Source: Flavobacteriales bacterium (GTDB taxonomy: Bacteria; Bacteroidota; Bacteroidia; UBA10329). Taken from it: a stretch of 64,000 nt of DNA. Positions 8,387-47,071 of this stretch are shown here, piece after piece. Below the pieces are notes generated by a model. The model saw only the letters and a list, made by a program, of their open reading frames with translations. It did not search any database and was not told the DNA's origin. How positions within the stretch are numbered: the first letter of the stretch is position 1; every line of letters begins with the position of its first letter. Position numbers and translations under genes: made by a program. The stretch lies in contig JAIOYO010000002.1 of assembly GCA_021741075.1 (NCBI GenBank), forward strand, positions 28,848 to 92,847, written 5' to 3'.

Positions 8387-8388
8387 AA

Positions 8389-13565: not shown

Positions 13566-14601
13566 GCTTCCCGTCTTTTAGCATTTGTGCATATTCCTTG
13601 GCAAAATAGGTAAGGATTGCCGAAGCGCCCGCTCGTTTAAAACTCAAGAGCATTTCGGGCATGGCTTTGTCGTAATCGAGCCAACCGTTTTGGGCTGCAG
13701 CTTTTAGCATGGCATATTCGCCACTTACGTTGTAGGCTGCTATTGGCAATTCAAACTTTTCTTTGAGAAGATGGATAATGTCTAGGTACAACAGCGCTGG
13801 CTTTACCATCAGAAAGTCTGCTCCTTCAGACGCATCTAATTCTGCTTCGCGAAGTGCTTCCCATTTGTTGGCTGGATCCATCTGGTAGGTTTTCTTGTCG
13901 CCCGATTTTGGTGCGCTGCCTAGCGCATCTCTAAACGGTCCGTAGTAGGCACTTGCATACTTGGCGGTGTAACTCATTATGCCCACGTTCTCAAAATCTT
14001 CGTCATCTAACTCTTCACGAATGTGCTGAATGCGTCCGTCCATCATATCCGATGGACCAATAATATCGATACCCACTTCTGCCTGTGCCACGGCCATTCT
14101 TCCAAGAATATCGAGCGTTTCGTCATTCAAGATTTTCCCATCTTCCACCAAGCCATCGTGTCCATCAGAACTGTACGGATCCATGGCCACATCGCTGATT
14201 AAACACGTTTCTGGAAACTCCTTTTTCAACTTTGAGATGGTGCGCAGGTAGAAGTTCTTCTGGCTGTAACTGTAGGTAGCAGTTTTGTCTTTCAGCGAAT
14301 CCTCTACCGCAGGAAAAAGCACAAACGAGCGCAATCCAAGGTTCATCGATTCTTCCACTTCTTTCAGCAATTTATCTTCCGAATAACGGTAGATGCCAGG
14401 CAGCGAACCAATCTCATCTTTAATTCCTTTTCCATCAACCATAAACAGCGGATAAATGAGGTTAGAAAGGTCTAAGCGCGTTTCGCGCACCATACTTCGT
14501 ATGGTTTCTGTGGCGCGGTTTCTTCTAGGTCGTTCAAGCATTGTTCTTACGGTGTCGGCCAAAGGTATAAACCTGTTGGCAACAGCATATCTTTGCTGCA
14601 T
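13558..14601 (-). CDS. hemB: porphobilinogen synthase (delta-aminolevulinate dehydratase)
   Basis: ERPRRNR N-terminal motif and active-site regions (SDVAMDPY, GPSDMMDGR) match HemB. Start may be the internal Met at MLERPRRNR (about 14538). Confidence 0.8.
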   Translation of the reverse strand: MQQRYAVANRFIPLADTVRTMLERPRRNRATETIRSMVRETRLDLSNLIYPLFMVDGKGIKDEIGSLPGIYRYSEDKLLKEVEESMNLGLRSFVLFPAVEDSLKDKTATYSYSQKNFYLRTISKLKKEFPETCLISDVAMDPYSSDGHDGLVEDGKILNDETLDILGRMAVAQAEVGIDIIGPSDMMDGRIQHIREELDDEDFENVGIMSYTAKYASAYYGPFRDALGSAPKSGDKKTYQMDPANKWEALREAELDASEGADFLMVKPALLYLDIIHLLKEKFELPIAAYNVSGEYAMLKAAAQNGWLDYDKAMPEMLLSFKRAGASAILTYFAKEYAQMLKDGKLA

Positions 14602-16989
14602 TCGATGATTTTCAAATCGCCATTATTTAAGCGCGTTTTAATTCTAGCATTTGGCGTTGGCTGTCTATGGTTGGGAATCACCACTTACCAAGGAGTTTCC
14701 TTCCTATTGAATCCAAACGTTTCTATAACACCAGATACGAGTCAATCAATCATTCCGAAGGGCACTCATATCATGACGCGCTTATTGCAAGACGCAATCA
14801 ATCGAGAAAACATTGTCATGCTTCCGTTTGAGATGACTCACAAATTGAGATTGATTGATTTCCTGTTAAAGAACACACATTGGTTGAATCAGGATTGGAA
14901 GGCCTCAATGAAGCAATGGCGAGCAGAAATGTTACTTGATTATGGAAGCAGCGAACAGGCGATAACCCAAATTGAAGATTTGATGATTCAATTAGGCTAC
15001 GCAACCGACCATGTGTCAGAAGAAAACGTCTACTTAATGAGGTTGTTGGCTGTGGCTCACCTAAGGGCTGGAGAACAAGAAAATTGCTTCAGCAATCATA
15101 ATGCAAAATCGTGCATTTTTCCGTTCCACCCTCTGGCATATCATAAGACTGAAGAACATGTGACTAGAGCCAGTGAAATTTATTCGAAAATCTTGGCATT
15201 TGCGCCAAATGACCGAACAGCAAGGTGGTTATTGAATGTATGTCAAAGTGCTTTAGGAAACTACCCTAATGGTCTTGCAGAAGAGCTGCTTGTGCCTATT
15301 CCGCAGGCTTGTACCGAAGTAGATAGAGGCTCAATTTTCGAAAATAAAGCCGCAGCGCTTGGCATTGATGACGGAAGAGTGGCAGGTGGTGTGGTTATCG
15401 ATGATTTTAACAATGATGGGTTGTTTGACCTATTCGTGTCATCGTTTGGTATAAAAGACCAGTTAAAATATTACGAACGTGTTGCTGACGGCACATTCGT
15501 AGATAAAACAAAGCAAGCTGGTATTCTGGGGCTTACTGGAGGATTGAATATGGTTCAGGCTGATTACAATAACGATGGACTGGTTGATTTACTGGTTTTG
15601 CGTGGTTCTTGGTTTGGGGCTTCGGGCTGCTACCCTAATTCGTTGCTAAAAAACCTTGGTAACGGAACTTTTGAAGACGTGACTATTGAAAGCGGGCTCT
15701 ATTCTGAATTTCCAACGCAAGTTGCATGTTGGGGAGATTTTAACCTTGATGGATGGGTTGATGTTTTTATTGGGAATGAAGTACGCGATGAGGACGTTTA
15801 CAACAGCAATACCAAGGAGGATGCATATCCAAGCGAATTTTATGTGAACAATGGCGATGGAACCTTCACCAACTTAGCAAGCAAATACGGTTTGGAGATA
15901 AATGGATTTGTAAAAGGTGCGGTTTGGACAGATATTGACAATGATCGATTGCAAGACCTTCTCGTATCCGTCAAAGGGAGAGGAAACCTTCTTTTTCACA
16001 ACCAAGGAGGAACATCAATAGGTAATTGGTCATTCCAAAACATATCAAAAACAGCAGATATAAAAGACCCTATTCAAAGCTTTGGCGCTGCCTCGTTTGA
16101 TATTGACAATGATGGGTTTCAGGACTTGATTATATGTGATTATGATGATATTAATAACACTCCCGAAAAGGCATTTGTGTCTGAAATGCTTGGCGAAAAA
16201 GCAGTAGTAACCATGGCCGTATATCACAATAATGGTAATAACACATATGAAGATATCACCCAAAAGGCTGGATTAGGCAAACAACTGTACACCATGGGAT
16301 TCAATTATGGTGATTACAACAATGATGGGTTTCTTGACTTCTTTGCTGGAACTGGAGCGCCCGACTATTCATCCTTGGTGCCAAATCGGCTTTTCAAGAA
16401 CGCTGGAAATAACCAATTTGAAGATGTTACCTTTTCTTACGGTTTTGGTTCTCTTCAAAAAGGACATGGGGTGAGTTTTGCCGACCTTGACCATGATGGT
16501 AATCTAGACATCTATCTGGTTCAAGGTGGAGCATTTCAGGGAGATCAATACCCAAATGCCTGCTATATGAACTCTGGGAATAACGGTTCTTGGCTATCGA
16601 TGAAGCTGATTGGATCCAAGTCAAACCGATCAGCAATTGGTGCAGTAGTTAGGGTTGACTTTACAGATTCATTACATAACAAACGTTACCTATTTAGAAC
16701 CGTTAGTTCTGGTGGAAGTTTCGGTGCAAATCCGTTTGATGTGCATGTTGGTCTCGGGAATACATCTACTATTGATTCAATAACGGTTACATGGCCAAAT
16801 AAAAACCACACCACGCAAACGTTTAGGACAATAAGCGTAAATCAGTTCTTGGTTATTAGAGAAGATTCGGACCATATAGAAATCGTTCAGAAAAATAAAA
16901 TTTCAATAGAATCAAACTCCACAAGTAGTGGGTCCTGTATCCTTGTTCCTAGTACAGTTAAAAATCAGTCAAACACATGGCGATGGTGA
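14593..16989 (+). CDS. CRTAC1-family protein: FG-GAP/VCBS repeats plus ASPIC/UnbV C-terminal domain
   Basis: Repeated D-x-N/D-x-DG-x-x-D-L calcium-binding loops (FNNDGLFDL, DYNNDGLVDL, FDIDNDGFQDL, DLDHDGNLDI) and a C-terminal UnbV_ASPIC-like segment. N-terminal signal/TM. Confidence 0.65.
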   Translation: MLHSMIFKSPLFKRVLILAFGVGCLWLGITTYQGVSFLLNPNVSITPDTSQSIIPKGTHIMTRLLQDAINRENIVMLPFEMTHKLRLIDFLLKNTHWLNQDWKASMKQWRAEMLLDYGSSEQAITQIEDLMIQLGYATDHVSEENVYLMRLLAVAHLRAGEQENCFSNHNAKSCIFPFHPLAYHKTEEHVTRASEIYSKILAFAPNDRTARWLLNVCQSALGNYPNGLAEELLVPIPQACTEVDRGSIFENKAAALGIDDGRVAGGVVIDDFNNDGLFDLFVSSFGIKDQLKYYERVADGTFVDKTKQAGILGLTGGLNMVQADYNNDGLVDLLVLRGSWFGASGCYPNSLLKNLGNGTFEDVTIESGLYSEFPTQVACWGDFNLDGWVDVFIGNEVRDEDVYNSNTKEDAYPSEFYVNNGDGTFTNLASKYGLEINGFVKGAVWTDIDNDRLQDLLVSVKGRGNLLFHNQGGTSIGNWSFQNISKTADIKDPIQSFGAASFDIDNDGFQDLIICDYDDINNTPEKAFVSEMLGEKAVVTMAVYHNNGNNTYEDITQKAGLGKQLYTMGFNYGDYNNDGFLDFFAGTGAPDYSSLVPNRLFKNAGNNQFEDVTFSYGFGSLQKGHGVSFADLDHDGNLDIYLVQGGAFQGDQYPNACYMNSGNNGSWLSMKLIGSKSNRSAIGAVVRVDFTDSLHNKRYLFRTVSSGGSFGANPFDVHVGLGNTSTIDSITVTWPNKNHTTQTFRTISVNQFLVIREDSDHIEIVQKNKISIESNSTSSGSCILVPSTVKNQSNTWRW

Positions 16990-20050: not shown

Positions 20051-20055
20051 GGTGC

Positions 20056-20499: not shown

Positions 20500-20942
20500 C
20501 CAAAGTTCCTTAAATACTCGATTTTGTCGTAAAGATTGGCTTTCAACTGACTGCCAGCTATTCTAAAATCTTGCATTTCGTCTGCCATATCCTTGTGCTT
20601 AAAAGGCAGCTCGCGGTCTTTCAGTAACACTCGGTCTTCAACTACGCGTTGAAGGTATTCTTCGTGCATTTTCAGTCTGTTCTTCTGGTTTTCAACCCGG
20701 TGCTCAACAAACGAAGTCAGTGTTTCTTTTAGTAACTGAATGTCCCTTTTTTCAACTGGATCAGACGCTTTTAAACCATAAATATCAACCATTCGCTGAT
20801 AGAACAAAAGGTCTATAACCAACGTGTTGAGTTCTGATTGCCATTCGCGGGTTTCGCTATGGTTGCGCTGCGCCTGTTTTCTATCGTTTACCTCTACCGA
20901 CATGAACCAAATATAGCTAGGATCAATGAAACTGAAATGCAA
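20496..20942 (-). CDS. hypothetical protein
   Basis: 148-aa ORF, 4-nt overlap with the downstream gene, helical and charged. No motif recognised. Confidence 0.35.
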   Translation of the reverse strand: MHFSFIDPSYIWFMSVEVNDRKQAQRNHSETREWQSELNTLVIDLLFYQRMVDIYGLKASDPVEKRDIQLLKETLTSFVEHRVENQKNRLKMHEEYLQRVVEDRVLLKDRELPFKHKDMADEMQDFRIAGSQLKANLYDKIEYLRNFG

Positions 20943-22092: not shown

Positions 22093-22968
22093 ATGACAAT
22101 CCAAAATCCTCAGGTTTTTACTGACAAGCAACTCCAACGCCATTTTGATGACTTCGGGTTTGTGCGAATTAATTTGCTCAATCTGGAGGAAACAGAGGAG
22201 CTGTTAAATTCTTATGAAGCACTTCCCCGCCCACGAGAATCTGGGTTTCACTGTACTATGTTTAGTCCAGATGCGGATTTGAAAACGTCAGTCGATTCCA
22301 TTATTAAAAACGCTTTGGTTGAAAAACTGAAACCACACTTTAAACAACACACTGCTCTGTATGGAAATTTTATGGTGAAAGAGCCAGGAGAAGAAAGCGA
22401 CTGGTTTGTGCACCAAGATTGGACCTATGTGGATGAAGCACAACATGTAAGTGTTGCCGTTTGGGTCCCACTAGTCGACCTCACCGAGAAAAACGGTGTT
22501 CTGTGTGTTGTTCCTGGTTCCCAAAAGATTCCAAATACGGTTAGAGGCCCAGGGGTGCATGATCCGTGGACAGATTTGCATCAAGTCATCAAAGAAGAAT
22601 ATCACGAAAAAGTTTTTCTAAAAGCAGGAGAAGCTATAGTGTGGCACCATCGTTTGGTTCACTTCTCGCCACCAAACATGTCTGATGAGCCCAGAATTGC
22701 AGCAACGCTTATCTGCACTCCAACCAATGTGCCGGTGTATCACTACTGGAAAGATCCATTGCAACAAGGAACTTTGGCCAGAAAATACCAGGTCGATTGC
22801 CGTTTTTTCATGAACTATGACATTGTGAATGAGCCAGCTAATGTGCCGTTTTCAGGACTGGTAGACAGCCACTTCCCAGATTTGGACCTGAACAGACTGA
22901 AGTCATTTTCCAATGAGCCTGTCGATGCTAGCTTTGTACACGGACCTCCACTGACAACCAATGCATAG
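22093..22968 (+). CDS. PhyH-family Fe(II)/2-oxoglutarate dioxygenase
   Basis: HQDWTYVDE (HxD facial triad) ... HHRLVHFSPPN distal His. Confidence 0.7.
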   Translation: MTIQNPQVFTDKQLQRHFDDFGFVRINLLNLEETEELLNSYEALPRPRESGFHCTMFSPDADLKTSVDSIIKNALVEKLKPHFKQHTALYGNFMVKEPGEESDWFVHQDWTYVDEAQHVSVAVWVPLVDLTEKNGVLCVVPGSQKIPNTVRGPGVHDPWTDLHQVIKEEYHEKVFLKAGEAIVWHHRLVHFSPPNMSDEPRIAATLICTPTNVPVYHYWKDPLQQGTLARKYQVDCRFFMNYDIVNEPANVPFSGLVDSHFPDLDLNRLKSFSNEPVDASFVHGPPLTTNA

Positions 22969-23812
22969 ACGGGTATTAAAAGATGCTGAGCTGCAAGCCA
23001 GATTCGATCAGGACGGATTTGTGGTCATTGATATGTTCTCAAATCAAGAATTCAACGAGTTGAAATCGATTCTGAGCCAGCTCAATGAGGAGAAGAAAGA
23101 CCTACAGTTCAATATCAATACCGATTACAAACTCAGTTTTTTCAGCACAGAACCTAATTATAGGAAACAGGTATTCAATTCGATTAGCGCGTTCTGCATG
23201 CCTGTTGTAAGTCGGTTTTTGGATGAATATGAACCGCTCATCGTGAACACGTTTGACAAGGAACCTGGCGAAGGAGAAGTACCCATTCATCAGAATTGGA
23301 CATTCGTTGATGAATCGAAGGCCACTTCCGTATCGGTTTGGATACCGATGATAGACACCACACGCGTCAACGGAACAATGGAGGTGGTGAAAGGCAGCCA
23401 TCGCGTTCTTTCAAGCTATCGTAGTCCCTCTATTCCGTGGGTGTTTGAAAACCTGCGGCATGAGATCAGAACCAAGTACATGGAACCGATTGATGCAAAG
23501 GTCGGTCAGGCCGTGATTCTGGATGATAGTATTCTGCATTACACCTCGCAAAATGATAGTGAAACCGTTCGGTCGGCCATTCAGCTGATTATGAAACCGA
23601 ACGATGTGCCTGCCATTCATTATCACATACCTTCCACCAGCTCTGTTGGTGTAGATGTATATGAGGTGGATTGGGAATTTTTCACACGGTTCAATATGAA
23701 TGAACCTCCTACAGGTGTGAAAAAGGTAGATGAATTGACCATCCACCAACATTTCCTTACCGAAGCTGAATTGGTTGATAGGATTGCACCATTGAAAGTC
23801 GCTGATCGCTGA
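22961..23812 (+). CDS. PhyH-family dioxygenase paralog with HxN variant of the iron motif
   Basis: IHQNWTFVDE aligns to the HxDW..VDE motif of its neighbours but carries Asn in place of Asp. Distal His in ILHYTSQN. Overlaps the upstream gene by 8 nt. Confidence 0.6.
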   Translation: MHRRVLKDAELQARFDQDGFVVIDMFSNQEFNELKSILSQLNEEKKDLQFNINTDYKLSFFSTEPNYRKQVFNSISAFCMPVVSRFLDEYEPLIVNTFDKEPGEGEVPIHQNWTFVDESKATSVSVWIPMIDTTRVNGTMEVVKGSHRVLSSYRSPSIPWVFENLRHEIRTKYMEPIDAKVGQAVILDDSILHYTSQNDSETVRSAIQLIMKPNDVPAIHYHIPSTSSVGVDVYEVDWEFFTRFNMNEPPTGVKKVDELTIHQHFLTEAELVDRIAPLKVADR

Positions 23813-23815
23813 CCT

Positions 23816-25384
23816 ATGCCAACATCCGGTTTAGCCAAATCCTTCATTGATTTGAAAACACTTGACGAGCGTGGTTTCACGTTGGTTTCCGCTCTTTCGC
23901 TAAAGGACATACTGAACCTGTTGATATTTTTCGATAAGCATCCTCATACTTCGAAGGGAGGCTCGTTTCATTCCACCATGGAACAGACAGAAGTTGACTA
24001 CAAGAAAATGGTTGACGAAAAGCTAAAGTCTGTTCTTAGTGACCAGATAGAACTGATGCTGCCGGGTCATGAGATCCTGTTCGGCAACTTTTTGGTGAAA
24101 GAGCCCGGGGCGAGCGGAAGTGTGGGTATTCACACCGATTGGTCGTATGTTGACGAATCCGTTCACACGTCATACAACCTCTGGATTCCTTTGACGGATG
24201 TGAATGAGCACAACGGATGTCTACATGTGTGGCCCGAAAGTCACAGGTTCACTCCACGTGTACGGACAACCCCCTATGTTCCGTTCAGCACTAAAGAGCA
24301 GCAAATGGTCCAGTTCAACTCTGTAGCGGTTCTATTATCTGCAGGACAGGGAGTGCTCTACCATAGCGGCCTTCTTCATTATTCCAACCCGAACAATACA
24401 CCAGATAATAGACCGGCCATTGCCTTGGTCATTGTTCCGAAGGGCGCACAACCGATGCATTACTATCGGCCAGAGCCGAACGGGTCAGAAGTGGAAGTCC
24501 ACAAGGTGGACCGCTCGTTTTTCCTTACGCACCTGCCTCAGTCCCGACCAACAGGAACCAAATTAGTGAAGACTGACGAAGTGCCGGTGTTCACATTAAG
24601 TACCGAAAGCGTACTGGAATCAGATGCTACGCAAACCAAGGTTTCTAACTACTATGACGAGTGGACCGGGGCTTACAGGGATATTTATGGAGATGTAATC
24701 CAAGCATTCCGTCCGAAAGATGAGACCGCTCTTCTCAACTATATCATGCACAGCGCTAGGATTGAAAACGGCCAAAGGATAGTCGATGCCGGTTGCGGCA
24801 TCTGCGGTCCTGCCATTTACTTCGCTCAGAACCGGGCGGTGCACATTGAGGCCATTACCCTATCGGGCGTGCAGACATCGATTGCAAACGAACGTATTTC
24901 TGCGGCCGGTCTACAAGAACTGATAACCTGCACTCAAGGCGATTTCCGGCTAATGGATTCTCTTGTAACCAGCGGAATGGATGGTGTCATCTTCTTAGAA
25001 TCGCTGGGGCATAGCACCAATGCACAAATGGCCATTCTGGCAGCCTACAGGGTGCTAAGGACGGGCGGCTTCATCTACATAAAGGACTTTTTTCCGCGAG
25101 AGTCGGCCAATCCAGAGATTCAACAGCGTATCGATAAAACAATAGACAACATCAATCGAGCATATAACTATGCCGTGCTCGACCTGAATAAGACATTGAG
25201 CCACCTTCGGAAAGCAGGGTTTGTAATAGATTTCATTCAAAGCCTGAACTTTGAAAGCGATACAGAAATTAGACGCAATTTTGAATCACAACACGGCATA
25301 TCGGTTTTCGAAGGAGGGGAGTTTATGCCAGCAGAGTGGCTCGAAATAAGGGCTGTTAAATATTTTGAGGAGGATGATAGATAA
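23816..25384 (+). CDS. fusion protein: PhyH-family dioxygenase (N) plus class I SAM-dependent methyltransferase (C)
   Basis: N-terminal half has GIHTDWSYVDE ... LLHYSNPN. C-terminal half has MTase motif I RIVDAGCGICGPAIYFA and post-I acidic/Rossmann pattern. Confidence 0.7.
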   Translation: MPTSGLAKSFIDLKTLDERGFTLVSALSLKDILNLLIFFDKHPHTSKGGSFHSTMEQTEVDYKKMVDEKLKSVLSDQIELMLPGHEILFGNFLVKEPGASGSVGIHTDWSYVDESVHTSYNLWIPLTDVNEHNGCLHVWPESHRFTPRVRTTPYVPFSTKEQQMVQFNSVAVLLSAGQGVLYHSGLLHYSNPNNTPDNRPAIALVIVPKGAQPMHYYRPEPNGSEVEVHKVDRSFFLTHLPQSRPTGTKLVKTDEVPVFTLSTESVLESDATQTKVSNYYDEWTGAYRDIYGDVIQAFRPKDETALLNYIMHSARIENGQRIVDAGCGICGPAIYFAQNRAVHIEAITLSGVQTSIANERISAAGLQELITCTQGDFRLMDSLVTSGMDGVIFLESLGHSTNAQMAILAAYRVLRTGGFIYIKDFFPRESANPEIQQRIDKTIDNINRAYNYAVLDLNKTLSHLRKAGFVIDFIQSLNFESDTEIRRNFESQHGISVFEGGEFMPAEWLEIRAVKYFEEDDR

Positions 25385-26210
25385 GATTGCTTTTGACAGA
25401 TTGGTGTTCACAGACCCAGAATTGAATTCACGCTTCAAATCTGAAGGATATGTGATTGTCAAAGGGTTCCTGTCTGAAAACGAGGTGGAACGCCTTGCAA
25501 CGTTCTATGAAGAACATCCTTCTGAGAGACGTACTGGTTTTCACACGACACTGCACGACAGCCGACCTGATTATCGCGAGTCGGTAACGAATGAGGTGAA
25601 TGACGTGTTCTACCCCAAAGCACAGAAATTACTGGTTGGATATGAACCTGTTTTTTCGTGTTTTACAGTAAAAGAACAGGATGCAGAAAGCGGTTTTGAC
25701 CTTCACCTTGACTGGAGCATGGTGGATGAAAAACAGTTCACTTCTGTCACCATCTGGTCTCCACTTACAGACATCACAGATACAAACGGTCTACTCTGGG
25801 TTCTTCCTGGAAGCCACCAATTCGAATATACCATCCGTGGAGGACCTGGATTGAGACTGTGGTGCGAAAAGCCTGCGCATGAGTGTTCTCAACGTTTTTC
25901 CATCCTTGAGCTGAAGTTGGCAAAAGGAGACGCCATCATCTACGACCATCGGTTATTTCATGGGTCGCCACCAAATCAAAGTAATCAGCGAAGGGTAGCA
26001 ATCAACTATTCAAGTATTCCTATAGCTGCTGAGTCCTTGCACTACCTGTTCAATGGAGATTCAGAAGTGCGAAGCCGATGTATCTCTCCTAATTACTATC
26101 ATCATCATATCCTTGACTATCTAGAAAATTGTGGTTTATACATAAACCGTAAAGAAATTGGAGGCAGCTTTCTTACCCAATCAGATGTGAACACATTAGT
26201 TAGAGACTAG
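25365..26210 (+). CDS. PhyH-family Fe(II)/2-oxoglutarate dioxygenase
   Basis: DLHLDWSMVDE ... RLFHGSPPN. Overlaps the upstream gene. Confidence 0.7.
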   Translation: MRRMIDKIAFDRLVFTDPELNSRFKSEGYVIVKGFLSENEVERLATFYEEHPSERRTGFHTTLHDSRPDYRESVTNEVNDVFYPKAQKLLVGYEPVFSCFTVKEQDAESGFDLHLDWSMVDEKQFTSVTIWSPLTDITDTNGLLWVLPGSHQFEYTIRGGPGLRLWCEKPAHECSQRFSILELKLAKGDAIIYDHRLFHGSPPNQSNQRRVAINYSSIPIAAESLHYLFNGDSEVRSRCISPNYYHHHILDYLENCGLYINRKEIGGSFLTQSDVNTLVRD

Positions 26211-29098: not shown

Positions 29099-30736
29099 AT
29101 GAAACTCGTTACAATTAAAAATATAGAACTGGCCGAAAGCCTTCGAGAAAAAGGATACGGAACAATAAACGGAGTCCTGAAGCCTAAAGACATTAACGAG
29201 CTTTCGTCATTTTTCTATGACCAACTTGAATTTTGTGGAGTTGATACTCCATTCTTCACAACCCATTGGAGCAGTTCTGAAGAGTATCGCAGAAAGGTGG
29301 ACGCAACCGTAAGGCGAGTAGTAGTACCGGCAATTGATAATTGGTTTGGCGACTACAAATGTCTTTTGGGTTATTACCTTTTAAAAAGACCCTCTACTAA
29401 TGGAGTGGTCACTCCACATAGAGATTGGTCGTTAACGGATGAGTCAAAATCAGCAGGATTGATTCTATGGATTCCGCTAACCAACATTAGTGCAGAAAAT
29501 GGCGGATTGGAGGTTGTGCAAAACAGCCACAATAACGCACCGCTTCGAGGAACAAACATTCATCCAGAAGTTCCAACGGAAATAAGTAGGAAAAAACTGT
29601 ATCCAGCAGCAGGTGATGCAATTGTTATGGACAATCGATTACTGCATTGTTCCGAACCCAATTCAAGCATGCATGAAAGGCTGGTAGTAGGTCTCATATT
29701 GCTTCCTAAAGATGCCGAGGTGCTCCATTCGTATCGGAAAGAGGGGGAGCGAGAAACACGAACTGTAAAAACTGGAGACGATTTTCTATTACGCTATCAT
29801 TTCAATCATGATAACCCAACAGATTGTGCGCACCTTGAGCATTATTCGACCAATTCAACAGAAAACTCTCTTTTTGGAAAAGGGAAAGGAAAAAACCAAG
29901 TTTTCCGAGATATTGCCCTAAATAAGACGTTTGAAAAATACGGTTACGTTGTCCTGAAACGGTTCTTGGACGAAGAAACTATTCTACGACTTCGCCAAGT
30001 CTATGAAGAAAACATCGATGTCGTCACCGATAAAGCATTCTATATCAGCCAGTGGAGCAATAAACAAGACAAGAAAGAACGTATAAACAAGGCGGTTCAG
30101 TCGGCTCTCGTTGCGCGTGCTCAGAATTACCTAAATGGGTATGAGCCCGTGTTCGCAGTGTTTGGGGTAAAACACCCTCAGCAAGACAGTGAAATGTACC
30201 TTCACCAAGACTGGGCACATGTGGACGAAACTTATTACCGAACCGTGAATGTTTGGTGCCCATTACTTGACATATCGAAAGACCGCGGTCCAGTACACGT
30301 GATTAACGGAAGTCATCGGCTATTTGACACATGGAGGGGCGTGGATATCCCCGATTCATTCCAGGAAATTGGCGTGGATGAACTCAAAAAGTATCTTACC
30401 GATATTCTGATGGAAGCTGGAGACGTGATAATGTGGGATCATCGCATCATACATGGTTCGGGAGTTAACCATTCTGATGTAACACGCGTTGCTGCCATCG
30501 TTAATATGAAACCAACTGCGGCCAAATTCTACTTATTTTATGCTGACTCAATCGAAAACCCTAAAAAAATTGAGGTTTTTGAACCGTCAGAAGACTTTTT
30601 CGTTAGCAATGACTCAGCAAACGAACCTGGTCTGGTGAAAGAAAAAGCCATTTTCATTCATCAGTTTCCGTATTGTAAGCCGCAGGTAACGGAGGCGGTT
30701 TTGCAACGCTTTATGCTTGATGAATTTCCTAATTAA
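29099..30736 (+). CDS. tandem double PhyH-family dioxygenase (two Fe/2OG domains in one polypeptide)
   Basis: Domain 1: TPHRDWSLTDE ... RLLHCSEPN. Domain 2: LHQDWAHVDE ... RIIHGSGVN. Confidence 0.7.
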   Translation: MKLVTIKNIELAESLREKGYGTINGVLKPKDINELSSFFYDQLEFCGVDTPFFTTHWSSSEEYRRKVDATVRRVVVPAIDNWFGDYKCLLGYYLLKRPSTNGVVTPHRDWSLTDESKSAGLILWIPLTNISAENGGLEVVQNSHNNAPLRGTNIHPEVPTEISRKKLYPAAGDAIVMDNRLLHCSEPNSSMHERLVVGLILLPKDAEVLHSYRKEGERETRTVKTGDDFLLRYHFNHDNPTDCAHLEHYSTNSTENSLFGKGKGKNQVFRDIALNKTFEKYGYVVLKRFLDEETILRLRQVYEENIDVVTDKAFYISQWSNKQDKKERINKAVQSALVARAQNYLNGYEPVFAVFGVKHPQQDSEMYLHQDWAHVDETYYRTVNVWCPLLDISKDRGPVHVINGSHRLFDTWRGVDIPDSFQEIGVDELKKYLTDILMEAGDVIMWDHRIIHGSGVNHSDVTRVAAIVNMKPTAAKFYLFYADSIENPKKIEVFEPSEDFFVSNDSANEPGLVKEKAIFIHQFPYCKPQVTEAVLQRFMLDEFPN

Positions 30737-32126: not shown

Positions 32127-32873
32127 TTGCAACAAGCCCCAACAGTTTCTGTTATTATTCCCCTCTACAAGAGCAAGCAGCTTTTCAAAAACATCATCAA
32201 CTTGACCCAAGAACTATTTCCCCTGCTTGGGTCAAAATCAGAACTTTTACTCATTAACGATGGAGATTCCGACCTTTTTGACCTCACTGTATTCGATGCG
32301 TTCACAACTATTAGCCGGTCTGTAACTTTACTGAGCCTTAGAAAAAATTTTGGTCAAATGACCGCCACTCTTTGCGGAATGAGCTTGGCAAAGAGCCCTA
32401 TTATACTGACAATAGATGCTGATTTTTACTGTGATTCAAACGTACTGAAAGAGTTAGTGATTAAGGCACAGGCTTCAAAGCACATCGCGTACATAGATTT
32501 ACAAGAACCAAACAACAACTTACCCATTCATCGAAAGGTTCTGAGTTGGATAAACAGAAAGGCCTTTACCCTCCTTGTTCACAATCCAGAATTGCATGCT
32601 TATACTGGGTCTTCAATTAGAGCAATTGAGCAATCATTGGTTGAAAGACTTATTCAAGAACACCGCAGTTCTGAATTAATGGATGTATGGTTGTTAAATA
32701 ATGCATTGAAGGTGTCGTTTATTCCCGTTAGCCAAAAAGGTGAGTCTAGTTCTTCTTATTCAATCACCTCCTTGATATCTTTCACATTTAGATTCATCCA
32801 TGGTTTGTTCAAGAAAAACAGCCGTTTCAAGGCTACTGACTATATTTATCAAATAGAAAAATTAAGCGGTTGA
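32127..32873 (+). CDS. GT2 family glycosyltransferase
   Basis: VSVIIPLYKS ... INDGDSD ... TIDADF (DXD). Confidence 0.6.
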   Translation: MQQAPTVSVIIPLYKSKQLFKNIINLTQELFPLLGSKSELLLINDGDSDLFDLTVFDAFTTISRSVTLLSLRKNFGQMTATLCGMSLAKSPIILTIDADFYCDSNVLKELVIKAQASKHIAYIDLQEPNNNLPIHRKVLSWINRKAFTLLVHNPELHAYTGSSIRAIEQSLVERLIQEHRSSELMDVWLLNNALKVSFIPVSQKGESSSSYSITSLISFTFRFIHGLFKKNSRFKATDYIYQIEKLSG

Positions 32874-34288
32874 CCGAAAAAAAAGGCCTTTCTGTTCTTA
32901 AAACAAAGTCTAGTGATGTTGAGGTTGTTTTCATAAACCCACGAGACTTGGTTGCTTGTGTGCCATATGTAAAGTTAGCCTCACTTGCAGGAACCCTTCG
33001 TGGTAACGGAATCCGCTCCCTTATTATAGAGCCAACGGCTACGAGGCTAAGTACAGCCGATGTGGTTCAACGTATCATTGATATTGATCCTAAAATCGTA
33101 TGTATTGGAGCATTCCCTTCCACTCTTCCTGATGCTTACAAACTAACATGTGAGCTAAAAAAGGAGGTGCCAAATACTACGTTGATACTGGAAGGCTACC
33201 ATGTAAATGCCGACCCTTCGATTCTAGTGGAAATGGATATTGAATGGGGTCTTCGAGGAGATGCTGAGTTGGCATTTGTCAATCTCTGTAAACACATATT
33301 ATCTGGTGAATCGTTTGATAATTCCATTCCAGGACTTGTACATTACATTGGGGGTATACTTAAAGACAATGGGCCAGCAACAATCAAGGATCTTGATTCA
33401 CTGCCCCTGCCCGCTTACGATTTGTTGTCTGTAGAGCGCTACTATTCTGCAAGCACCAACAAGCGATATATGCAGCTGTTCACCACACGTGGCTGTCCGT
33501 ACAATTGTAATTTCTGCGCTAACCCAACACAAATGAGTTTTCGCTATTTGAGCAACGAAAGAGTGCTGCAACACCTTAACGTACTCGTAAAAGACTGCCG
33601 TGTAGAATGGGTGGAATTTATGGATCTAACGTTTACAGTAAATCGCAAACGCACACTGTCTATGTGTCAAGCAATTATTGACTTTGGTGTTCATTTTGAC
33701 TGGGGATGTGAGACCCGAGCAGACTTGATAGATGAAGAATTGTTGTTAAAAATGAAGGACGCGGGTTGCAAAAAAATCACTTTCGGTGTTGAGTCTGGCG
33801 CGGAGCATGTTCGTTTTAGAACGGGAAAGAAAATTACCAATCAGCAGTGCATAGAAGCTTTCGATTTATGTCGAAAGCACGGAGTAAAAACAATGGCCAA
33901 TTTCATTTTCGGCCATCCCAACGAGACAGAATCTGAAATGTGGGAGACCGTACGCTTTGCAGCAAAACTAAAACCGTTCAACGTCATGTTTACGCGAATG
34001 GTGCCTATGCCAGATGTGGAGGTTTATAAATTGGGTATAAAAGAAAAACAATTCGGTTCTGATGTTTGGGTACGGTACATGAAGGGCGAAATAGAACATC
34101 CCACCTATATCCCTAACACCATTGACAAGTCTTTGATGAATAAGATGTACCAATTAGCTTACCTGCGGTACTATCTTTCTTTAAGAGTTATGCGAAGCTA
34201 CCTACCTCTGCTAATTGAACCTAAATTTTTTGTGCAATCAATTATCGTTTTTGGTCGAATGGCCTTCGGAAAACCTGTATTTAAATGA
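32870..34288 (+). CDS. B12-binding domain radical SAM protein (class B rSAM, probable methyltransferase)
   Basis: N-terminal Rossmann-like B12-binding region, then TTRGCPYNCNFCANP (Cx3Cx2C). Confidence 0.65.
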   Translation: MTEKKGLSVLKTKSSDVEVVFINPRDLVACVPYVKLASLAGTLRGNGIRSLIIEPTATRLSTADVVQRIIDIDPKIVCIGAFPSTLPDAYKLTCELKKEVPNTTLILEGYHVNADPSILVEMDIEWGLRGDAELAFVNLCKHILSGESFDNSIPGLVHYIGGILKDNGPATIKDLDSLPLPAYDLLSVERYYSASTNKRYMQLFTTRGCPYNCNFCANPTQMSFRYLSNERVLQHLNVLVKDCRVEWVEFMDLTFTVNRKRTLSMCQAIIDFGVHFDWGCETRADLIDEELLLKMKDAGCKKITFGVESGAEHVRFRTGKKITNQQCIEAFDLCRKHGVKTMANFIFGHPNETESEMWETVRFAAKLKPFNVMFTRMVPMPDVEVYKLGIKEKQFGSDVWVRYMKGEIEHPTYIPNTIDKSLMNKMYQLAYLRYYLSLRVMRSYLPLLIEPKFFVQSIIVFGRMAFGKPVFK

Positions 34289-34812
34289 ACCTACGAAAAA
34301 TCTTTACCTCGTTTTTTAAGTCAGAAAATATTCCGGTTAATTCGATTCACAACTTATCGATTAAAACCCTCGAAGGAGAGCCTTTTTCCTTAAGCCAATT
34401 CAAGGGCAAAAAGCTGCTAATTGTAAATGTGGCTTCTGCATGTGGTCTCACTCCACAGTACGAGCAACTGCAACAGCTTTACGTCAAGTACCATGGCAAA
34501 CTGGAAATTCTAGGTATTCCTTGCAACGATTTTGCTGGGCAAGAACCCGGAACGCCAGAACAGATACTTGAATTCTGTAAAATCAATTATGATGTCTCTT
34601 TTCTGCTAACAGAAAAAGTGAACATTAAAACCGAGCCTATTCATCCGCTATATACTTTTCTTACCAGAAAGGAGAATAATGGGCTTCAAGACTCAGAAGT
34701 AGATTGGAATTTTCAGAAGTATTTGCTTAATGAGCAAGGTGTGTTAATTCAAGTTTTATCACCAGCAACAGAGCCTCTTTCGTCCGAGTTGTGTGCTGCC
34801 ATAGATGCGTAG
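34285..34812 (+). CDS. glutathione peroxidase family protein (Cys-type)
   Basis: LLIVNVASACGLTPQY ... ILGIPCNDFAGQEPG is the classic GPx/BtuE signature, with Cys rather than Sec. Confidence 0.8.
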   Translation: MNLRKIFTSFFKSENIPVNSIHNLSIKTLEGEPFSLSQFKGKKLLIVNVASACGLTPQYEQLQQLYVKYHGKLEILGIPCNDFAGQEPGTPEQILEFCKINYDVSFLLTEKVNIKTEPIHPLYTFLTRKENNGLQDSEVDWNFQKYLLNEQGVLIQVLSPATEPLSSELCAAIDA

Positions 34813-34909
34813 TTTTGAGAAATTCATTCAAATTGGCTTGATTGCAAGTTATATTTGAGACAATGCGATTTTACGGCTACGCGCAATAAATTCCGTTAAT
34901 TACTGGAAA

Positions 34910-41709: not shown

Positions 41710-42266
41710 AAATAAGTCACGGAAATACCGTACTCCGCAGCCTTGAAAACAAAGACCTTGAACGTGTGCGAAGCTGGCGCAATAACGAATCCGTAAACCA
41801 GCACCTTCTGAACAGGGAATACATCTCTATAGAGGCGCAGGCAAAGTGGTTCGAAAATATTGATGCTGAAACATCCCTTTATTGTATTGCAGAGGAAAGT
41901 GGCGTTCCTTTCGGATTGATTTACGCAACTGAAATAAACAAGGGAAAACGAACTTTTTGGGGAAACGTCTTAGTCGGGGAGCCTGCGTTTCGTAGCTCTG
42001 CTTTGCCTGTAAAGGCAGTGGTTATGCTCATGTGGTACTTTTTAGAAAATTTGGGGTTTGAAACCTGTTTTTCCAAGGTTGCGACTAGCAACTCTTCGGC
42101 ATTGCAACTAAATCAGCGACTCGGTTTTTTAACATTCAAAAAAGAAGGCGGCCTTTCGATTCAACGTTGTGAACGAGCACTGTACCATTCCAAGGCAGCA
42201 CGATTCTGGAAACCCCTGCTCGCCCACCATCAAATACGAGTATTTCAATCTGAACTTGATTTATGA
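41706..42266 (+). CDS. GNAT-family N-acyltransferase
   Basis: 186 aa with RimL/WecD-like GNAT fold pattern (..QLNQRLGF.. acyl-CoA binding motif A region). Confidence 0.55.
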   Translation: MKISHGNTVLRSLENKDLERVRSWRNNESVNQHLLNREYISIEAQAKWFENIDAETSLYCIAEESGVPFGLIYATEINKGKRTFWGNVLVGEPAFRSSALPVKAVVMLMWYFLENLGFETCFSKVATSNSSALQLNQRLGFLTFKKEGGLSIQRCERALYHSKAARFWKPLLAHHQIRVFQSELDL

Positions 42267-45200
42267 TGAGACCATTCTTTTTTCTGGTAGGGATAACGGT
42301 ACTATTTGTGTCTTGCGGCACACTACCGAATAAAAAGACCAAAGGGCCAATGTTTGAAGCTCTTTCCCCTCAGCAATCTGGTATTTTCTTTTCGAACGTG
42401 CTAGACGATACGCGCAGCATTCCTTCTGGGGCAGATTCATTAATGGAAAACCTCCCGTGGGGGATTAATGAGCTTATGTATAACTATGCTGGCGGGGGTG
42501 TTTCTGTAGCTGATATTAACAACAATGGGCTACCAGATATTTTCTTCACCAGCAATCAAGGAGAAGGAGCTCTTTACCTGAATTTGGGCGATTTTCGCTT
42601 CCAAGACATAACAAAGGAGTCCGGTTTAACATATCCTGCTGCGTGGGTTACAGGAACAGTGATGGCCGATGTAAATGGTGACGGCTTTATGGACATTTAT
42701 GTGTGTAGAGCGGGTAAGAAACCAATGTCAAACACCAGTAATCTTCTGTTTATCAATAACGGTAATCTAACATTTACTGAGCGAGCTGCCGAATATGGTC
42801 TCAACGATATTGGTCTGACTACAAGCGCCTCATTCTTCGACATGGATTTAGACGGAGATTTGGACGTCTATGTTTTGAACCAGCCTATTTTCGGTGAAGA
42901 AGACCCCACTAGTTTTCAATTTGAAATTTTACTTCCGCATGATTCATTAAGTGCCGACCGTCTTTATGAGAATGTTGGAAATCGATTTGTTGATGTGACG
43001 TTCCAAGCTGGACTACCGGTCGAAAAGGGCTCTGGTTTGGGCATCACCATATCAGATTTAGATATGGATGGCCTTCCAGACATTTTTGTGGCAAACGATT
43101 GGATTACGAATGATTTCGTTTACATCAATCAGGGTAACGGCAAATTTGAGAATCAGTGTGAAGAACTACTGCCACGAAATAGTTTTTTCAGCATGGGATG
43201 TGACATTGCAGATGTAGACAACAACGGCCGCCCAGATGTATTTGTATGCGATATGGCTCCGTATTCGCATTACAGAAGAAACATGATTCTTAACGGTGCA
43301 CCACAAGAGTATTATCAATTGCAAAAACGGTATAAAGGAGTAATGCAGTATAGTCGTAACATGCTTCATCTCAATTACCAAGGAGGTTTTCAGGAAACAG
43401 GAAATATGCACGGAATAGCACGCACAGATTGGAGCTGGAGCCCCCTTCTTGTGGATTTGGATAATGATGGTCTGAAAGACCTTTTCGTTACCAACGGCAT
43501 GAAACGAGATGTTGGAAATATGGACTTTGAAATGCTGATGTATGCGGACCTTGAAGGCGAGAGTTATAAAAGAGAGCGTGCCGAGCTAGTAAAAAACTAC
43601 CCGGTTTACAGGCTCCCCAATAGGGCCTTCCGCAACAATAGTGCTGGTCGCTGGATAGATGTGACAGATTCGTGGGGATTTGGCGGCCCTTTGAATACAC
43701 AAGGATCCGCTTATGCCGACCTAGACCTTGACGGAAACATCGACCTGATTTTGAATCCAACGGACAGTGTAGCACGCATTTACAAAAACCACGGAGATGA
43801 GAACAACCATCTGTCCATCAAAATACTAGGAGCAGGAAAAAACACATTAGGGCTAGGAACTAAAGTTTGGCTATTCAACAACGGAGAAACACATTTTTGT
43901 GAGCTTTCTAATGCACGCGGGTTTCAATCGTCTTCAGAACCCATTATTCATTTCGGGGTGGGAAAAGCTACTCTTATTGACAGTATTCGTGTGGTTTTTC
44001 CTTTGGGGTCTTATCAGGTATTGAAAAACGTACCTGTCCAGCAACGGATTACACTTACGGAAAATGGTTCAAACCCTCAACATTTGATTCCACTGGAAGA
44101 CGCAAATGATACTTGGTCAAACGCTACACACCGAATTATACCTGCTTTTAAACATAATCAACCCGACTTTTTTGACTTTGCTAGAGATAAGACTGCGTTT
44201 AGAATGTTTTCCCGTGAGGGACCGGCACTTGTGGTTGCAGACGTAAATGGCGACCTCCGCCAAGACTTTTTTGTAGGCGGCCAAGCCGGACAGCCATCAA
44301 GAATTTACATCCAAACTACATCGGGAGAATTCTTGTTGTCTAACCAACCAGAAATTGAAGCCGATAGCACATCGGCTGACGTAGACGCGGTTATTGTAGA
44401 CCTTAATGCAGACGGTTATCCCGATCTCTACGTGGCTAGTGGAAGTAACCTGTTCCCTATTAGTGACGAGCGCTACCTTGACCGGCTTTATTTGAACAAT
44501 GGCAAGGGTCAGTTTAAACGGTGCAAAGACTGCTTAGAAGACATCCGTGTAAGTTCGGGATGTGTTGCTGCTCATGACGTGGATGATGACGGAATTCCTG
44601 AATTATTTGTAGGAGGTAGGGTAGTTCCTGGGACAGAAGGAATCATTCCCGAAAGCTACTTGCTTCAAAATTCAAACGGACGTTTTAGCTCAACTAGTAA
44701 TACGATTATTAAGAATCTACCAAGTGTTGGAATGGTAACTGACGCAATTTGGCATGACCTCAATACTGACGGAGAAAAAGAACTCATTGTGACATGTGAG
44801 TGGGAATCGCCAAAAGTGTACAAGTGGTCAAAAAATGTCTTCACAGAGTCCGCGGCTGAATTCGGCATAAATCTGCCAAACGGACTGTGGACGAGTATTT
44901 CCGTTTGCGATGCAAATGCCGATGGTAAACAAGACCTCTTGTTTGGAAATTGGGGGCTTAACTCCATCCTGACCGCAGACGTAAAGAAACCACTAAAGCT
45001 CTTAATCAACGATTTTGACGGAAACGGAAAGCAAGAGCCACTGTTATGCATCTATTTGAACGACACCTTAGACTCGTTCCTCGGGAGAAACGAAATCTGT
45101 GGAGCAATGCCGCAATTCTGGAGAAAGTACAACACCTACCAAAGTTTTGCGACCACACCACTAACTAATAAGTTTGGATTGGCGACAATTGATAATTCTG

Positions 45201-45574
45201 AGTATCGAACTGTAAATGAACTCCAATCTACCCTTATGATGAACAGTGAGTCTGGCAAATACACACAAAAATCATTGCCTTTTGGTTGTCAAGCAGCTTC
45301 AATTAATGCAGCTATTACGTTAAATGGCGACAAACGCCCTATTCTATTCGGAGGTAACGAAAGTTTGCATTATACCGAGGGAGCAATTGATGCGCTCGGG
45401 GTTCGACTTCTCAGCTTGTCTGAATCAAATATCTTGCAAATACAGTCACCTAAACTAGGCGAGTTATTTCCATTATTCCGCAATGTGAGTAGCGCAGAAA
45501 TTATTTCCATTAATGGGGAGGAGTTCATTCTTGTCGCACGGCCATCAAATGAGTTGTTACTAGTAAAGCCTTGA
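42263..45574 (+). CDS. CRTAC1-family lipoprotein: multiple FG-GAP/VCBS repeats plus ASPIC/UnbV domain
   Basis: Lipobox VLFVSCGT. Many D-x-N-x-DG-x-x-D loops (DINNNGLPDIF, DVNGDGFMDIY, DMDLDGDLDVY ...) and a central UnbV_ASPIC-like segment (GLGTKVWLFNNGETHFCE...). Paralog of 14593..16989. Confidence 0.65.
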   Translation: MMRPFFFLVGITVLFVSCGTLPNKKTKGPMFEALSPQQSGIFFSNVLDDTRSIPSGADSLMENLPWGINELMYNYAGGGVSVADINNNGLPDIFFTSNQGEGALYLNLGDFRFQDITKESGLTYPAAWVTGTVMADVNGDGFMDIYVCRAGKKPMSNTSNLLFINNGNLTFTERAAEYGLNDIGLTTSASFFDMDLDGDLDVYVLNQPIFGEEDPTSFQFEILLPHDSLSADRLYENVGNRFVDVTFQAGLPVEKGSGLGITISDLDMDGLPDIFVANDWITNDFVYINQGNGKFENQCEELLPRNSFFSMGCDIADVDNNGRPDVFVCDMAPYSHYRRNMILNGAPQEYYQLQKRYKGVMQYSRNMLHLNYQGGFQETGNMHGIARTDWSWSPLLVDLDNDGLKDLFVTNGMKRDVGNMDFEMLMYADLEGESYKRERAELVKNYPVYRLPNRAFRNNSAGRWIDVTDSWGFGGPLNTQGSAYADLDLDGNIDLILNPTDSVARIYKNHGDENNHLSIKILGAGKNTLGLGTKVWLFNNGETHFCELSNARGFQSSSEPIIHFGVGKATLIDSIRVVFPLGSYQVLKNVPVQQRITLTENGSNPQHLIPLEDANDTWSNATHRIIPAFKHNQPDFFDFARDKTAFRMFSREGPALVVADVNGDLRQDFFVGGQAGQPSRIYIQTTSGEFLLSNQPEIEADSTSADVDAVIVDLNADGYPDLYVASGSNLFPISDERYLDRLYLNNGKGQFKRCKDCLEDIRVSSGCVAAHDVDDDGIPELFVGGRVVPGTEGIIPESYLLQNSNGRFSSTSNTIIKNLPSVGMVTDAIWHDLNTDGEKELIVTCEWESPKVYKWSKNVFTESAAEFGINLPNGLWTSISVCDANADGKQDLLFGNWGLNSILTADVKKPLKLLINDFDGNGKQEPLLCIYLNDTLDSFLGRNEICGAMPQFWRKYNTYQSFATTPLTNKFGLATIDNSEYRTVNELQSTLMMNSESGKYTQKSLPFGCQAASINAAITLNGDKRPILFGGNESLHYTEGAIDALGVRLLSLSESNILQIQSPKLGELFPLFRNVSSAEIISINGEEFILVARPSNELLLVKP

Positions 45575-45578
45575 GTTT

Positions 45579-46931
45579 TTACTCAGCCGCAACAAGCCGT
45601 TTAAGCACGTGTTGACCAATCTTTTTTCCTTGTGCGATGCCGTCATCATTAGAAAAACGATAATGAATTCCACCGTATAGACGGCTGTTTGCCACTTCGT
45701 CTGAAGCCTCTTTAAAACTACCGAATGACCTAGGCGTTTTGCCGAAAGGAACCTCAAGGCTATCGGTGAATGCATAATTATTTCCAAAAAATTCAGTTAA
45801 AACCGTGGATGCTGCAGCAGAAATAGCGCTGTGTCCGCTAGTGTAGTCTGGAAAATGTGGGGTTTCAAGCAATGGTCTCCACTTAGGATCTATGTATCTG
45901 TTTATATACGTCTCTGGCCGTATCAATTGATAATGGTATTTGGTGTCCCACACGGAAATAAATCCATCGTGAAGCGCAATAGCCGTTATGGCGGTCCTAA
46001 ATGAGCTTTCGTGAAGGTCTAAGTTCTGTACTGTGCAAGCATTTCGAACCAAACCTATCCAGTGAGCCCCTGGGCTCATTTGCCGAACGGCCCTAATGGC
46101 ATGACCATCCCTCTTAGTGAGATATGGATTGCAATCCCAAAAATTCGCAATCTCCCGCTGTTCTAGCGTCAGTGTTTCAACTGTTTGTTGTACCTCTTTG
46201 GCGTAGTTATAGAATTCCGAACTTGAATCCGCGGAAAAAGTCACCCGAAAATCTGGTCTGTAAACCGAAGGTGAGTCCAATACGAAAGACCTAATCTTAT
46301 GCCACCAAGGGTCTAAGGCTTCGGAATACTTGGGTGGTGTTGGTTCCCATGCCCATGGCTCGTTTATAGTTACATACCGTGGCAGTGCTCGCATCTCAGC
46401 GAAACCATCTGCACGCATCCATTTAAGCAAATGCTCTTCTAGTTTACGGCATATTTCCATGGTGTATTCCACCTTATGGTTGCCGTATAAAGAACTAATT
46501 GAATCTGTGAAATGGGCGCTTAATTCATCTATCAATTGTGGATGAAAAACCCCCTCTCTCGCTAAAGAACAGAAAGCGTGTATTACCGCTAGTTCTACCA
46601 CATAATTGCTTGTATCCACATCCAAATCTGGAACACCATAGCCATTCAATCTTCCTGAAAAACCATTGTACTTGTTCTGCTTAATTGCAGTTGCTTCAAA
46701 GGCGGCTATGTTCGCATAAGCAAAGCACCTAGCTGCAGCAGGTGGCGAAAGGGTTCCAGCTATGGTTGCCTCGGTAAGCCGATGGTTTATTCGATTCAAA
46801 AGTTCATTGTTGCGTTTATTTGACTCCATCAACGAACCCACCTTGTGGTCACACCCATTGTGCGTCAAGGCCAAAAGCAGCAGACCAATCGAGATGAACG
46901 TTTTGTTGAGGGCTTGGATAAATTCAATCAT
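45579..46931 (-). CDS. PAP2-superfamily protein, vanadium-dependent haloperoxidase-like
   Basis: Three PAP2/V-HPO motifs in order: KYHYQLIRP (KxxxxxxRP), PDYTSGHS (PSGH), SRLYGGIHYRFSND (SRxxxGxH...D), preceded by a helical N-terminal domain of about 280 aa. Lipoprotein signal. Confidence 0.5.
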   Translation of the reverse strand: MIEFIQALNKTFISIGLLLLALTHNGCDHKVGSLMESNKRNNELLNRINHRLTEATIAGTLSPPAAARCFAYANIAAFEATAIKQNKYNGFSGRLNGYGVPDLDVDTSNYVVELAVIHAFCSLAREGVFHPQLIDELSAHFTDSISSLYGNHKVEYTMEICRKLEEHLLKWMRADGFAEMRALPRYVTINEPWAWEPTPPKYSEALDPWWHKIRSFVLDSPSVYRPDFRVTFSADSSSEFYNYAKEVQQTVETLTLEQREIANFWDCNPYLTKRDGHAIRAVRQMSPGAHWIGLVRNACTVQNLDLHESSFRTAITAIALHDGFISVWDTKYHYQLIRPETYINRYIDPKWRPLLETPHFPDYTSGHSAISAAASTVLTEFFGNNYAFTDSLEVPFGKTPRSFGSFKEASDEVANSRLYGGIHYRFSNDDGIAQGKKIGQHVLKRLVAAE

Positions 46932-47071
46932 GTTTTGTAAATGTAAGTGAATGGATTGAATAATTTCGCAATGGCTTTCCTGTGATTAAGCCAAAGAACA
47001 ACAACATTTTACTTCTTCCTTTGAGGCTTCATTCTCTAAAAATTTAATTCTTTCTTACATATCTAACCATC

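Follow-up and report, generated by a model that had tools for sequence, protein, structure and literature searches.

The window analysed here, a 64,000-nucleotide stretch of contig JAIOYO010000002.1 (assembly GCA_021741075.1) from a Flavobacteriales bacterium, encodes on its reverse strand a 450-residue vanadium-dependent haloperoxidase (VHPO). The VHPO gene converges on a gene for a 1103-residue CRTAC1-like lipoprotein, and the two are embedded in a large cluster of biosynthetic type (Table 1). Judged from full-length homology and from the modelled fold, the VHPO is a family member of the same type as ZgVIPO1, the vanadium iodoperoxidase of Zobellia galactanivorans, which was reportedly described by Fournier et al. 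in 2014 (AEM 80:7561). The family assignment is already contained in the NCBI naming, where the identical protein is labelled [quoted passage not shown], and hence is not new. The stop codon of the partner gene (TGA, 45572-45574) and that of the VHPO gene (TTA, the reverse complement of TAA, 45579-45581) leave a spacer that is too short for a terminator.

The VHPO begins with MIEFIQALNKTFISIGLLLLALTHNG-C27, a hydrophobic signal followed by a cysteine. In our alignment of 37 homologues (alignment A1, which is also the basis of the family profile and the AlphaFold2 model described below), the Cys27 column is a cysteine in 37/37 sequences, and the lipobox is of the canonical [LVI][ASTG][GA]C form in the majority, such as LFSGC, VLGC, or IAGC. 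The lipobox of the window protein, T-H-N-G-C (H-N-G at positions -3 to -1), is weaker and less canonical than those of its homologues. The VHPO is therefore a likely lipoprotein. Seven nucleotides ahead of its ATG lies TACATTTAC, which resembles the Bacteroidota -7 element, and from this likeness we infer a candidate promoter.

Table 1. Features of the window (positions are those of the 64,000-nucleotide stretch; aa, amino acids; ORF, open reading frame)
Feature	Position	Strand	Basis or remark
VHPO coding sequence, 450 aa, ATG start	45579..46931	-	ORF checked by translation
Signal peptide through putative lipidated Cys27, MIEFIQALNKTFISIGLLLLALTHNGC	46851..46931	-	Translation
Motif 1, K331-YHYQLI-R338-P339 (KYHYQLIRP)	45915..45941	-	Fits KxxxxxxRP; invariant, 37/37
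Motif 2, T364-S365-G366-H367	45831..45842	-	S and H 37/37; G 35/37
Motif 3, S416-R417-LYG-G421-I-H423 (SRLYGGIH)	45663..45686	-	Fits SRxxxGxH; R and H 37/37
Partner, 1103-aa CRTAC1-like lipoprotein, N-terminus MMRPFFFLVGITVLFVSC	42263..45574	+	Pfam FG-GAP_3 (eight copies) and UnbV_ASPIC
Spacer between the convergent stops, 4 bp, GTTT	45575..45578		Sequence
Upstream intergenic region	46932..47071		Separates the VHPO gene from a divergent 62-aa ORF and the cytochrome bd subunit-I-like gene
Cytochrome bd subunit-I-like gene, 431 aa	47072..48556	+	Solitary, divergent from the VHPO gene; no adjoining CydB
Second FG-GAP_3/UnbV_ASPIC gene, 798 aa, TTG start	14593..16989	+	Beside a MacB-type transporter gene
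Five PhyH proteins with six domains	22093..26210 and 29099..30736	+	
PhyH domain with HxN	22961..23812		
PhyH-methyltransferase fusion	23816..25384		
Tandem double PhyH	29099..30736		
Glutathione peroxidase (GSHPx) gene	34285..34812	+	Between two B12-radical-SAM genes; kept in locus L002

A single-sequence phmmer search covering all PDB chains returned one strong match, ZgVIPO1 (4CIT/4USZ; E 1e-103), in which VHPO residues 45-446 align with residues 41-447, and BLASTP gives 42% identity to ZgVIPO1 over 407 aa. Pfam detects PAP2 (PF01569) at residues 315-425 with 30.7 bits, against a gathering cut-off of 27.2. PAP2 is the sole match at E<=0.01 in our own Pfam scan of the VHPO, the precomputed annotation of the identical protein lists PF22778 (VCPO_2nd) together with PAP2, and an NCBIfam scan gave no match. 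When the PDB was searched with the family profile, 4CIT came first (E 8e-192), followed by NapH1 (E 3.5e-8), XhnO11 (E 4.5e-8), NapH3 (E 3.8e-6), the vanadium chloroperoxidase of Curvularia inaequalis (CiVCPO; E 1.6e-5), and, more weakly than CiVCPO, the algal vanadium bromoperoxidases. Every solved VHPO thereby outranks any PAP2 phosphatase, an acid phosphatase being found at E 0.48.

The AlphaFold2 model (predicted local distance difference test score, pLDDT, 89.3; predicted template-modelling score, pTM, 0.88) is all-helical except for two short hairpins, and the helices of its N-terminal half span residues 34-59, 63-82, 112-127, 131-146, and 151-173. A Foldseek comparison with the PDB places 4USZ/4CIT at the top (TM-score 0.83/0.90, root-mean-square deviation 2.1 Å), and NapH1, NapH3, and CiVCPO next, at TM-scores of about 0.6. 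Acid phosphatases match only the C-terminal bundle, with a TMq of about 0.3, and the ranking is the same as that obtained with the profile. On these grounds, with the acid phosphatases behind all of the VHPOs in both searches, a phosphatase as the primary assignment was discarded.

ZgVIPO1 is likewise 450 aa long, aligns over its full length, and has the vanadate ligands, the Trp/Phe pair, and Tyr270 (Zg Tyr263) in common with the window VHPO. It also carries a lipoprotein-type N-terminal signal and has a directly adjacent FG-GAP/UnbV_ASPIC gene. It differs in being just 42% identical and in falling into another subclade of the neighbour-joining (NJ) tree. While ZgVIPO1 has three tandem co-directional partners, the window VHPO has one convergent partner and, unlike ZgVIPO1, sits in a biosynthetic-type cluster. 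CiVCPO (1VNC/1IDQ) and Streptomyces NapH1 (3W36) share the fold of two four-helix bundles and the K/R/S-G-H/R/H vanadate site, but they are 13-15% identical, are larger (531-609 aa), and, to our knowledge, are not lipoproteins. The class A acid phosphatases and PAP2 lipid phosphatases (7F17, 1D2T-type, PgpB 5JKI) have the three PAP2 motifs and the C-terminal bundle in common with the VHPO, but they are single-bundle proteins of about 200-250 aa or are embedded in the membrane, in contrast to the VHPO with its extra N-terminal bundle.

In the active site, K331, R338, S365, G366, H367, R417, and H423 align with residues 332, 339, 366-368, 418, and 424 of the 4CIT chain. The ZgVIPO1 equivalents are Lys324, Arg331, Ser358-Gly359-His360, Arg410, and His416, and the +8 offset of the 4CIT chain numbering agrees with these residue numbers. 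W328 and F360, which belong to the halide pocket, correspond to Trp350 and Phe397 of CiVCPO, and the vanadate-site equivalents in that enzyme are Lys353, Arg360, Ser402-Gly403-His404, Arg490, and His496. The latter set is corroborated by the title of Hemrika 1999. Across the 37 homologues, the vanadate-binding residues are invariant except for G366, and W328 and F360 are invariant as well (37/37). Tyr270 is Tyr or Phe across the family, and V327 stands where ZgVIPO1 has Cys320. The residue predicted to bind vanadate covalently is H423. Together, the residues show a competent oxyanion site, although they do not by themselves prove its occupancy by vanadate.

An earlier note, made from the letters of this DNA, had read the protein as a VHPO-like enzyme with three ordered signature motifs, a long helical N-terminal domain, and a lipoprotein signal. 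The motifs do occur in the PAP2 order, and the first and third conform to its KxxxxxxRP and SRxxxGxH. Its literal PSGH is absent, with Thr instead of Pro ahead of SGH. The helical N-terminal domain is borne out by the five helices between residues 34 and 173, and the signal and Cys27 are present, in the less canonical form described above. The family assignment holds in both sequence and fold, the alignment places all seven vanadate-binding residues as well as the W328/F360 pair, and the better fit to PAP2 lipid phosphatases that would have spoken against the note was not seen.

The partner bears FG-GAP_3 (E 7.5e-65) and UnbV_ASPIC (E 1.5e-16) in Pfam, human CRTAC1 (9ETN; E 2.8e-11) is the one PDB entry that it matches in sequence, and its N-terminal MMRPFFFLVGITVLFVSC is a lipoprotein-type signal. 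We surveyed the pairing in the 80 best loci from GTDB species genomes, searched by tblastn with the window proteins. Their VHPO homologues are 37-43% identical, and Bacteroidota contribute most of the loci and Gemmatimonadota some. Adjacency was counted in those loci that have flanks of at least 3.5 kb on either side of the gene, 49 in all. The nearest FG-GAP/UnbV gene lies at most 600 bp upstream and is co-directional in 31 of the 49 loci, is adjacent downstream in two (one convergent, one co-directional), and is farther off within 10 kb in eight, while the remaining eight have no FG-GAP/UnbV homologue within 10 kb. Accordingly, such a homologue directly adjoins the VHPO gene in 33/49 loci and lies within 10 kb in 41/49. 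These neighbours are often two or three tandem paralogues. The same order is found at ZgVIPO1 itself: the gene for P0121 of Zobellia sp. OII3, which is 100% identical to the reconstructed 4CIT sequence, lies 8 bp downstream of three packed FG-GAP_3/UnbV_ASPIC genes encoding 1107, 1119, and 1101 aa (locus L095). Because of the 33/49 adjacency and this identical order at ZgVIPO1, the VHPO and CRTAC1-like pair is a family-wide module. Randomly scattered copies, even tens of them in a genome, would be expected to give far less direct adjacency and operon-like spacing.

In the library searched, literature searches for UnbV together with haloperoxidase, and for vanadium-dependent haloperoxidase together with Bacteroidetes and SusD, found nothing, and the titles and abstracts retrieved for ASPIC and UnbV are unrelated to a VHPO pairing. 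The pairing is apparently undescribed.

Among the 80 loci, 19 have SusC-like and 16 have SusD-like matches (for example, L089), and 15/80 encode a protein of about 190 aa between the FG-GAP paralogues. The gene order is recurrent: a ZgVIPO1-type VHPO gene is nearly always the last one after one to three tandem FG-GAP_3/UnbV_ASPIC genes encoding about 1100 aa, often behind SusC/SusD (L095:3-11353; L007-L086, such as L021, L057, and L075; L087; L089). Bacteroidota SusC/SusD loci with CRTAC1-like FG-GAP/UnbV_ASPIC proteins, which resemble polysaccharide utilization loci (PULs), end in the module that is also found in the window. Unlike in those loci, the window module lies among PhyH, radical-SAM, acyl-ACP (acyl carrier protein), and glycosyltransferase genes, and a Pfam scan of nearly all window ORFs of at least 120 aa found no Plug, TonB_dep_Rec, or SusD match.

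What surrounds the pair in the window? To its left lie GT2 and DegT genes, the second FG-GAP/UnbV gene, MacB-type and ABC-2 transporters, five PhyH proteins (one with two PhyH domains), two B12-radical-SAM enzymes, GSHPx, an Asp/Asn beta-hydroxylase, an AMP-ligase, an ACP, a ketoacyl-ACP synthase III (KAS III), and a GNAT protein. To its right lie the cytochrome bd-I-like protein, Fib_succ_major, LPG_synthase_TM, cytochrome c, and DUF6056, and also DegT, GT2, and three radical-SAM (rSAM) SPASM enzymes. The earlier note was correct about the 4-bp distance between the two stop codons. It had taken the convergent neighbour for the last biosynthetic gene, which does not hold, as this gene encodes the CRTAC1-like lipoprotein and no recognisable biosynthetic enzyme. 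Its placement of the VHPO at the locus end is likewise mistaken, because biosynthetic-type genes flank the pair on both sides, with the DegT, GT2, and rSAM-SPASM genes continuing beyond the VHPO.

The cluster linkage extends to relatives of the window VHPO. Locus L002, with a VHPO 81% identical, has nearly all genes on both sides in common with the window. L003 and L006 (VHPO 71% and 59%) carry the GNAT-KAS III-ACP-AMP-ligase set and a flavin-dependent Trp_halogenase. L090 (VHPO 43%) has PhyH (46% identity), cytochrome c (53%), LPG_synthase_TM, Asp_Arg_Hydrox, and WelO5. In L092 (VHPO 44%), the pair is co-directional with a 4-bp overlap, and is accompanied by five PhyH, WelO5, ABC, GT2, GNAT, and Cyt_bd_I. 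The pair is therefore kept in pieces of the cluster from 81% to 43% VHPO identity, despite reshuffled gene order and in both pair orientations. The 80 more distant loci have no cluster genes in common with the window beyond a few generic cross-matches (ABC ATPase, M1 peptidase, GT2, and DegT). In this subclade, the module is a stable component of a PhyH/radical-SAM-rich cluster, and we argue that it works with the cluster because the co-location survives divergence and rearrangement. Such co-location would not in itself reveal the substrate or an action on the cluster product.

Several further features of these loci deserve description. The iron motif of the PhyH domains is HxD in 5/6 and HxN in one, and HxG/A occurs in 0/6. 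Accordingly, the PhyH paralogues were rejected as iron/2-oxoglutarate-dependent halogenases. No other recognisable halogenase is present in the window. In the relatives, Trp_halogenase lies between the GNAT and FG-GAP genes (L003:9046-10614, L006:5106-6677), and the WelO5-type halogenases are at L090:3229-4104 and L092:14702-15559, while the window and L002 have neither type. L090 also has additional FG-GAP/UnbV paralogues next to the pair. The stop codon of the 62-aa ORF that precedes the cytochrome bd-I-like gene directly abuts the ATG of that gene in the same frame, and a Cyt_bd_oxida_I gene is close to the pair in L092 as well. The cytochrome bd-I-like gene might be tied to oxidant supply, and the occurrence of GSHPx, VHPO, and cytochrome c together hints at peroxide chemistry at the locus.

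Four segments of the window (59698-63916, 32870-36412, 495-10536, and 19164-20942) together contain the three rSAM-SPASM enzymes, the two B12-radical-SAM enzymes, the Asp/Asn beta-hydroxylase, a prolyl oligopeptidase, two M1 peptidases, and four ORFs of about 147 aa that have no Pfam matches. In combination, these features resemble a maturation locus for a peptide of the RiPP type (ribosomally synthesised and post-translationally modified peptide). The cluster also holds the acyl-ACP/KAS III/GNAT set and many glycosyltransferases.

We consider, with a probability of about 0.65, that the gene product is a ZgVIPO1-type VHPO, an envelope lipoprotein forming one half of a conserved module with a CRTAC1-like partner, and that in this subclade the module is embedded in the cluster. 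How would such a module act? According to the chemistry of the family, vanadate would be held by His423 together with Lys331, Arg338, Ser365, Gly366, His367, and Arg417. H2O2 would turn the bound vanadate into peroxovanadate, which would oxidise a halide beside Trp328/Phe360: iodide at least, and possibly bromide or chloride. The hypohalous species would arise outside the cytoplasm. The VHPO would act jointly with the FG-GAP/UnbV_ASPIC propeller lipoprotein. Typically, the module would end SusC/SusD-type uptake loci; in the subclade, it would instead lie within the cluster and act in the context of the exported or surface product of the latter.

A number of points weigh against this assignment of function. 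The vanadate-site residues are also the phosphate-binding residues of PAP2 phosphatases, and therefore their conservation alone is no proof of vanadate use. The title of PDB entry 3BB0 points to phosphatase chemistry in apo-VCPO. In our unbootstrapped NJ tree, the window VHPO and its near relatives split from the ZgVIPO1 clade, and the second shell of the subclade has H333/Y334 in place of R/S and, beside F360, H359 in place of P. Finally, a Rhodopirellula VHPO that groups with VIPO-like sequences is a chloroperoxidase preferring bromide (PMC13519999). Since VIPO-like clustering misleads in this way, the halide scope is not predictable from sequence, and we dropped the prediction of halide specificity from residues, which the same published evidence shows to be unreliable (PMC13519999). 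The cluster-linked subclade has its own conserved substitutions at residues 283-284, 333-334, 356, 359, and 398, including R283/Q284 as compared to K/K in the ZgVIPO1 clade. Those near Lys331/Phe360 (H333, Y334, and H359) could alter the preference for the halide or the substrate.

More tentatively, the VHPO and the CRTAC1-like propeller may constitute an undescribed obligate envelope module, normally coupled to SusC/SusD uptake, that in one Flavobacteriales lineage the cluster has captured for the halide-dependent oxidation of its exported or surface-bound product. The propeller might bind Ca2+ or the substrate of this module, or else provide the oxidant or hold it in place. We regard this proposal as possible rather than probable.

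A dedicated tailoring role as a halogenase or oxidase, raised in the earlier note, in which the VHPO halogenates the cluster metabolite after export, appears doubtful to us. In its favour are the persistence of the pair in PhyH/rSAM-type clusters over the whole range of VHPO identity, the presence of ABC exporters within the cluster, and the lack of any other recognisable halogenase in a window in which the PhyH proteins carry HxD/HxN. In addition, the Trp_halogenase or WelO5 of the relatives suggests that the product class is probably halogenated. However, the relatives with a dedicated halogenase retain the VHPO, and therefore it is not simply the halogenase of the cluster. The same module also occurs without such a cluster in 80 other species, the characterised ZgVIPO1 included, and the release of diffusible hypohalous acid has been described for ZgVIPO1-type enzymes (PMC10427571).

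It is improbable that the protein has a VHPO fold without halogenating activity, and performs NapH3-like organic chemistry or consumes peroxide in the envelope with its FG-GAP partner. The fold can support non-halogenating chemistry, as the title of PDB entry 8CXL indicates for NapH3, and the GSHPx, cytochrome c, and cytochrome bd-I-like genes are peroxide-related neighbours. Against this, the vanadate-binding set is kept throughout the family, as it would be in an active haloperoxidase, and nothing points to an organic-substrate pocket. A PAP2-type acid or lipid phosphatase, using the K/R/SGH/R/H site on phosphate esters and having no halide chemistry, would fit the Pfam match above the gathering score, the active-site residues common to both enzyme classes, and the names “phosphatidic acid phosphatase” or “PAP2 family” that some sources give to homologues, including the protein identical to ZgVIPO1, but is very improbable given the profile and Foldseek rankings, the VHPO traits of two bundles within 450 aa and of an unvarying W328/F360 pair, and a nearest solved relative, ZgVIPO1, that is a demonstrated iodoperoxidase and served as a positive control (PMC10427571).

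The family is very large, with at least 7969 database proteins matching ZgVIPO1 at E<=1e-100, and within it the gene is unremarkable. The added interest, which is moderate, lies in the family-wide pairing of the VHPO with a CRTAC1-like protein and in the proposed capture of this pair by a biosynthetic cluster. For bacterial ZgVIPO1-type enzymes, roles in accumulating iodine and in protection from the halogens of algae have been proposed; Zobellia itself accumulates iodine and is genetically tractable. The near-constant CRTAC1-like pairing, often behind SusC/SusD, provides a concrete handle on their physiological role, and the subclade provides a second setting, within a biosynthetic cluster, in which the substrate of the module might be identifiable.

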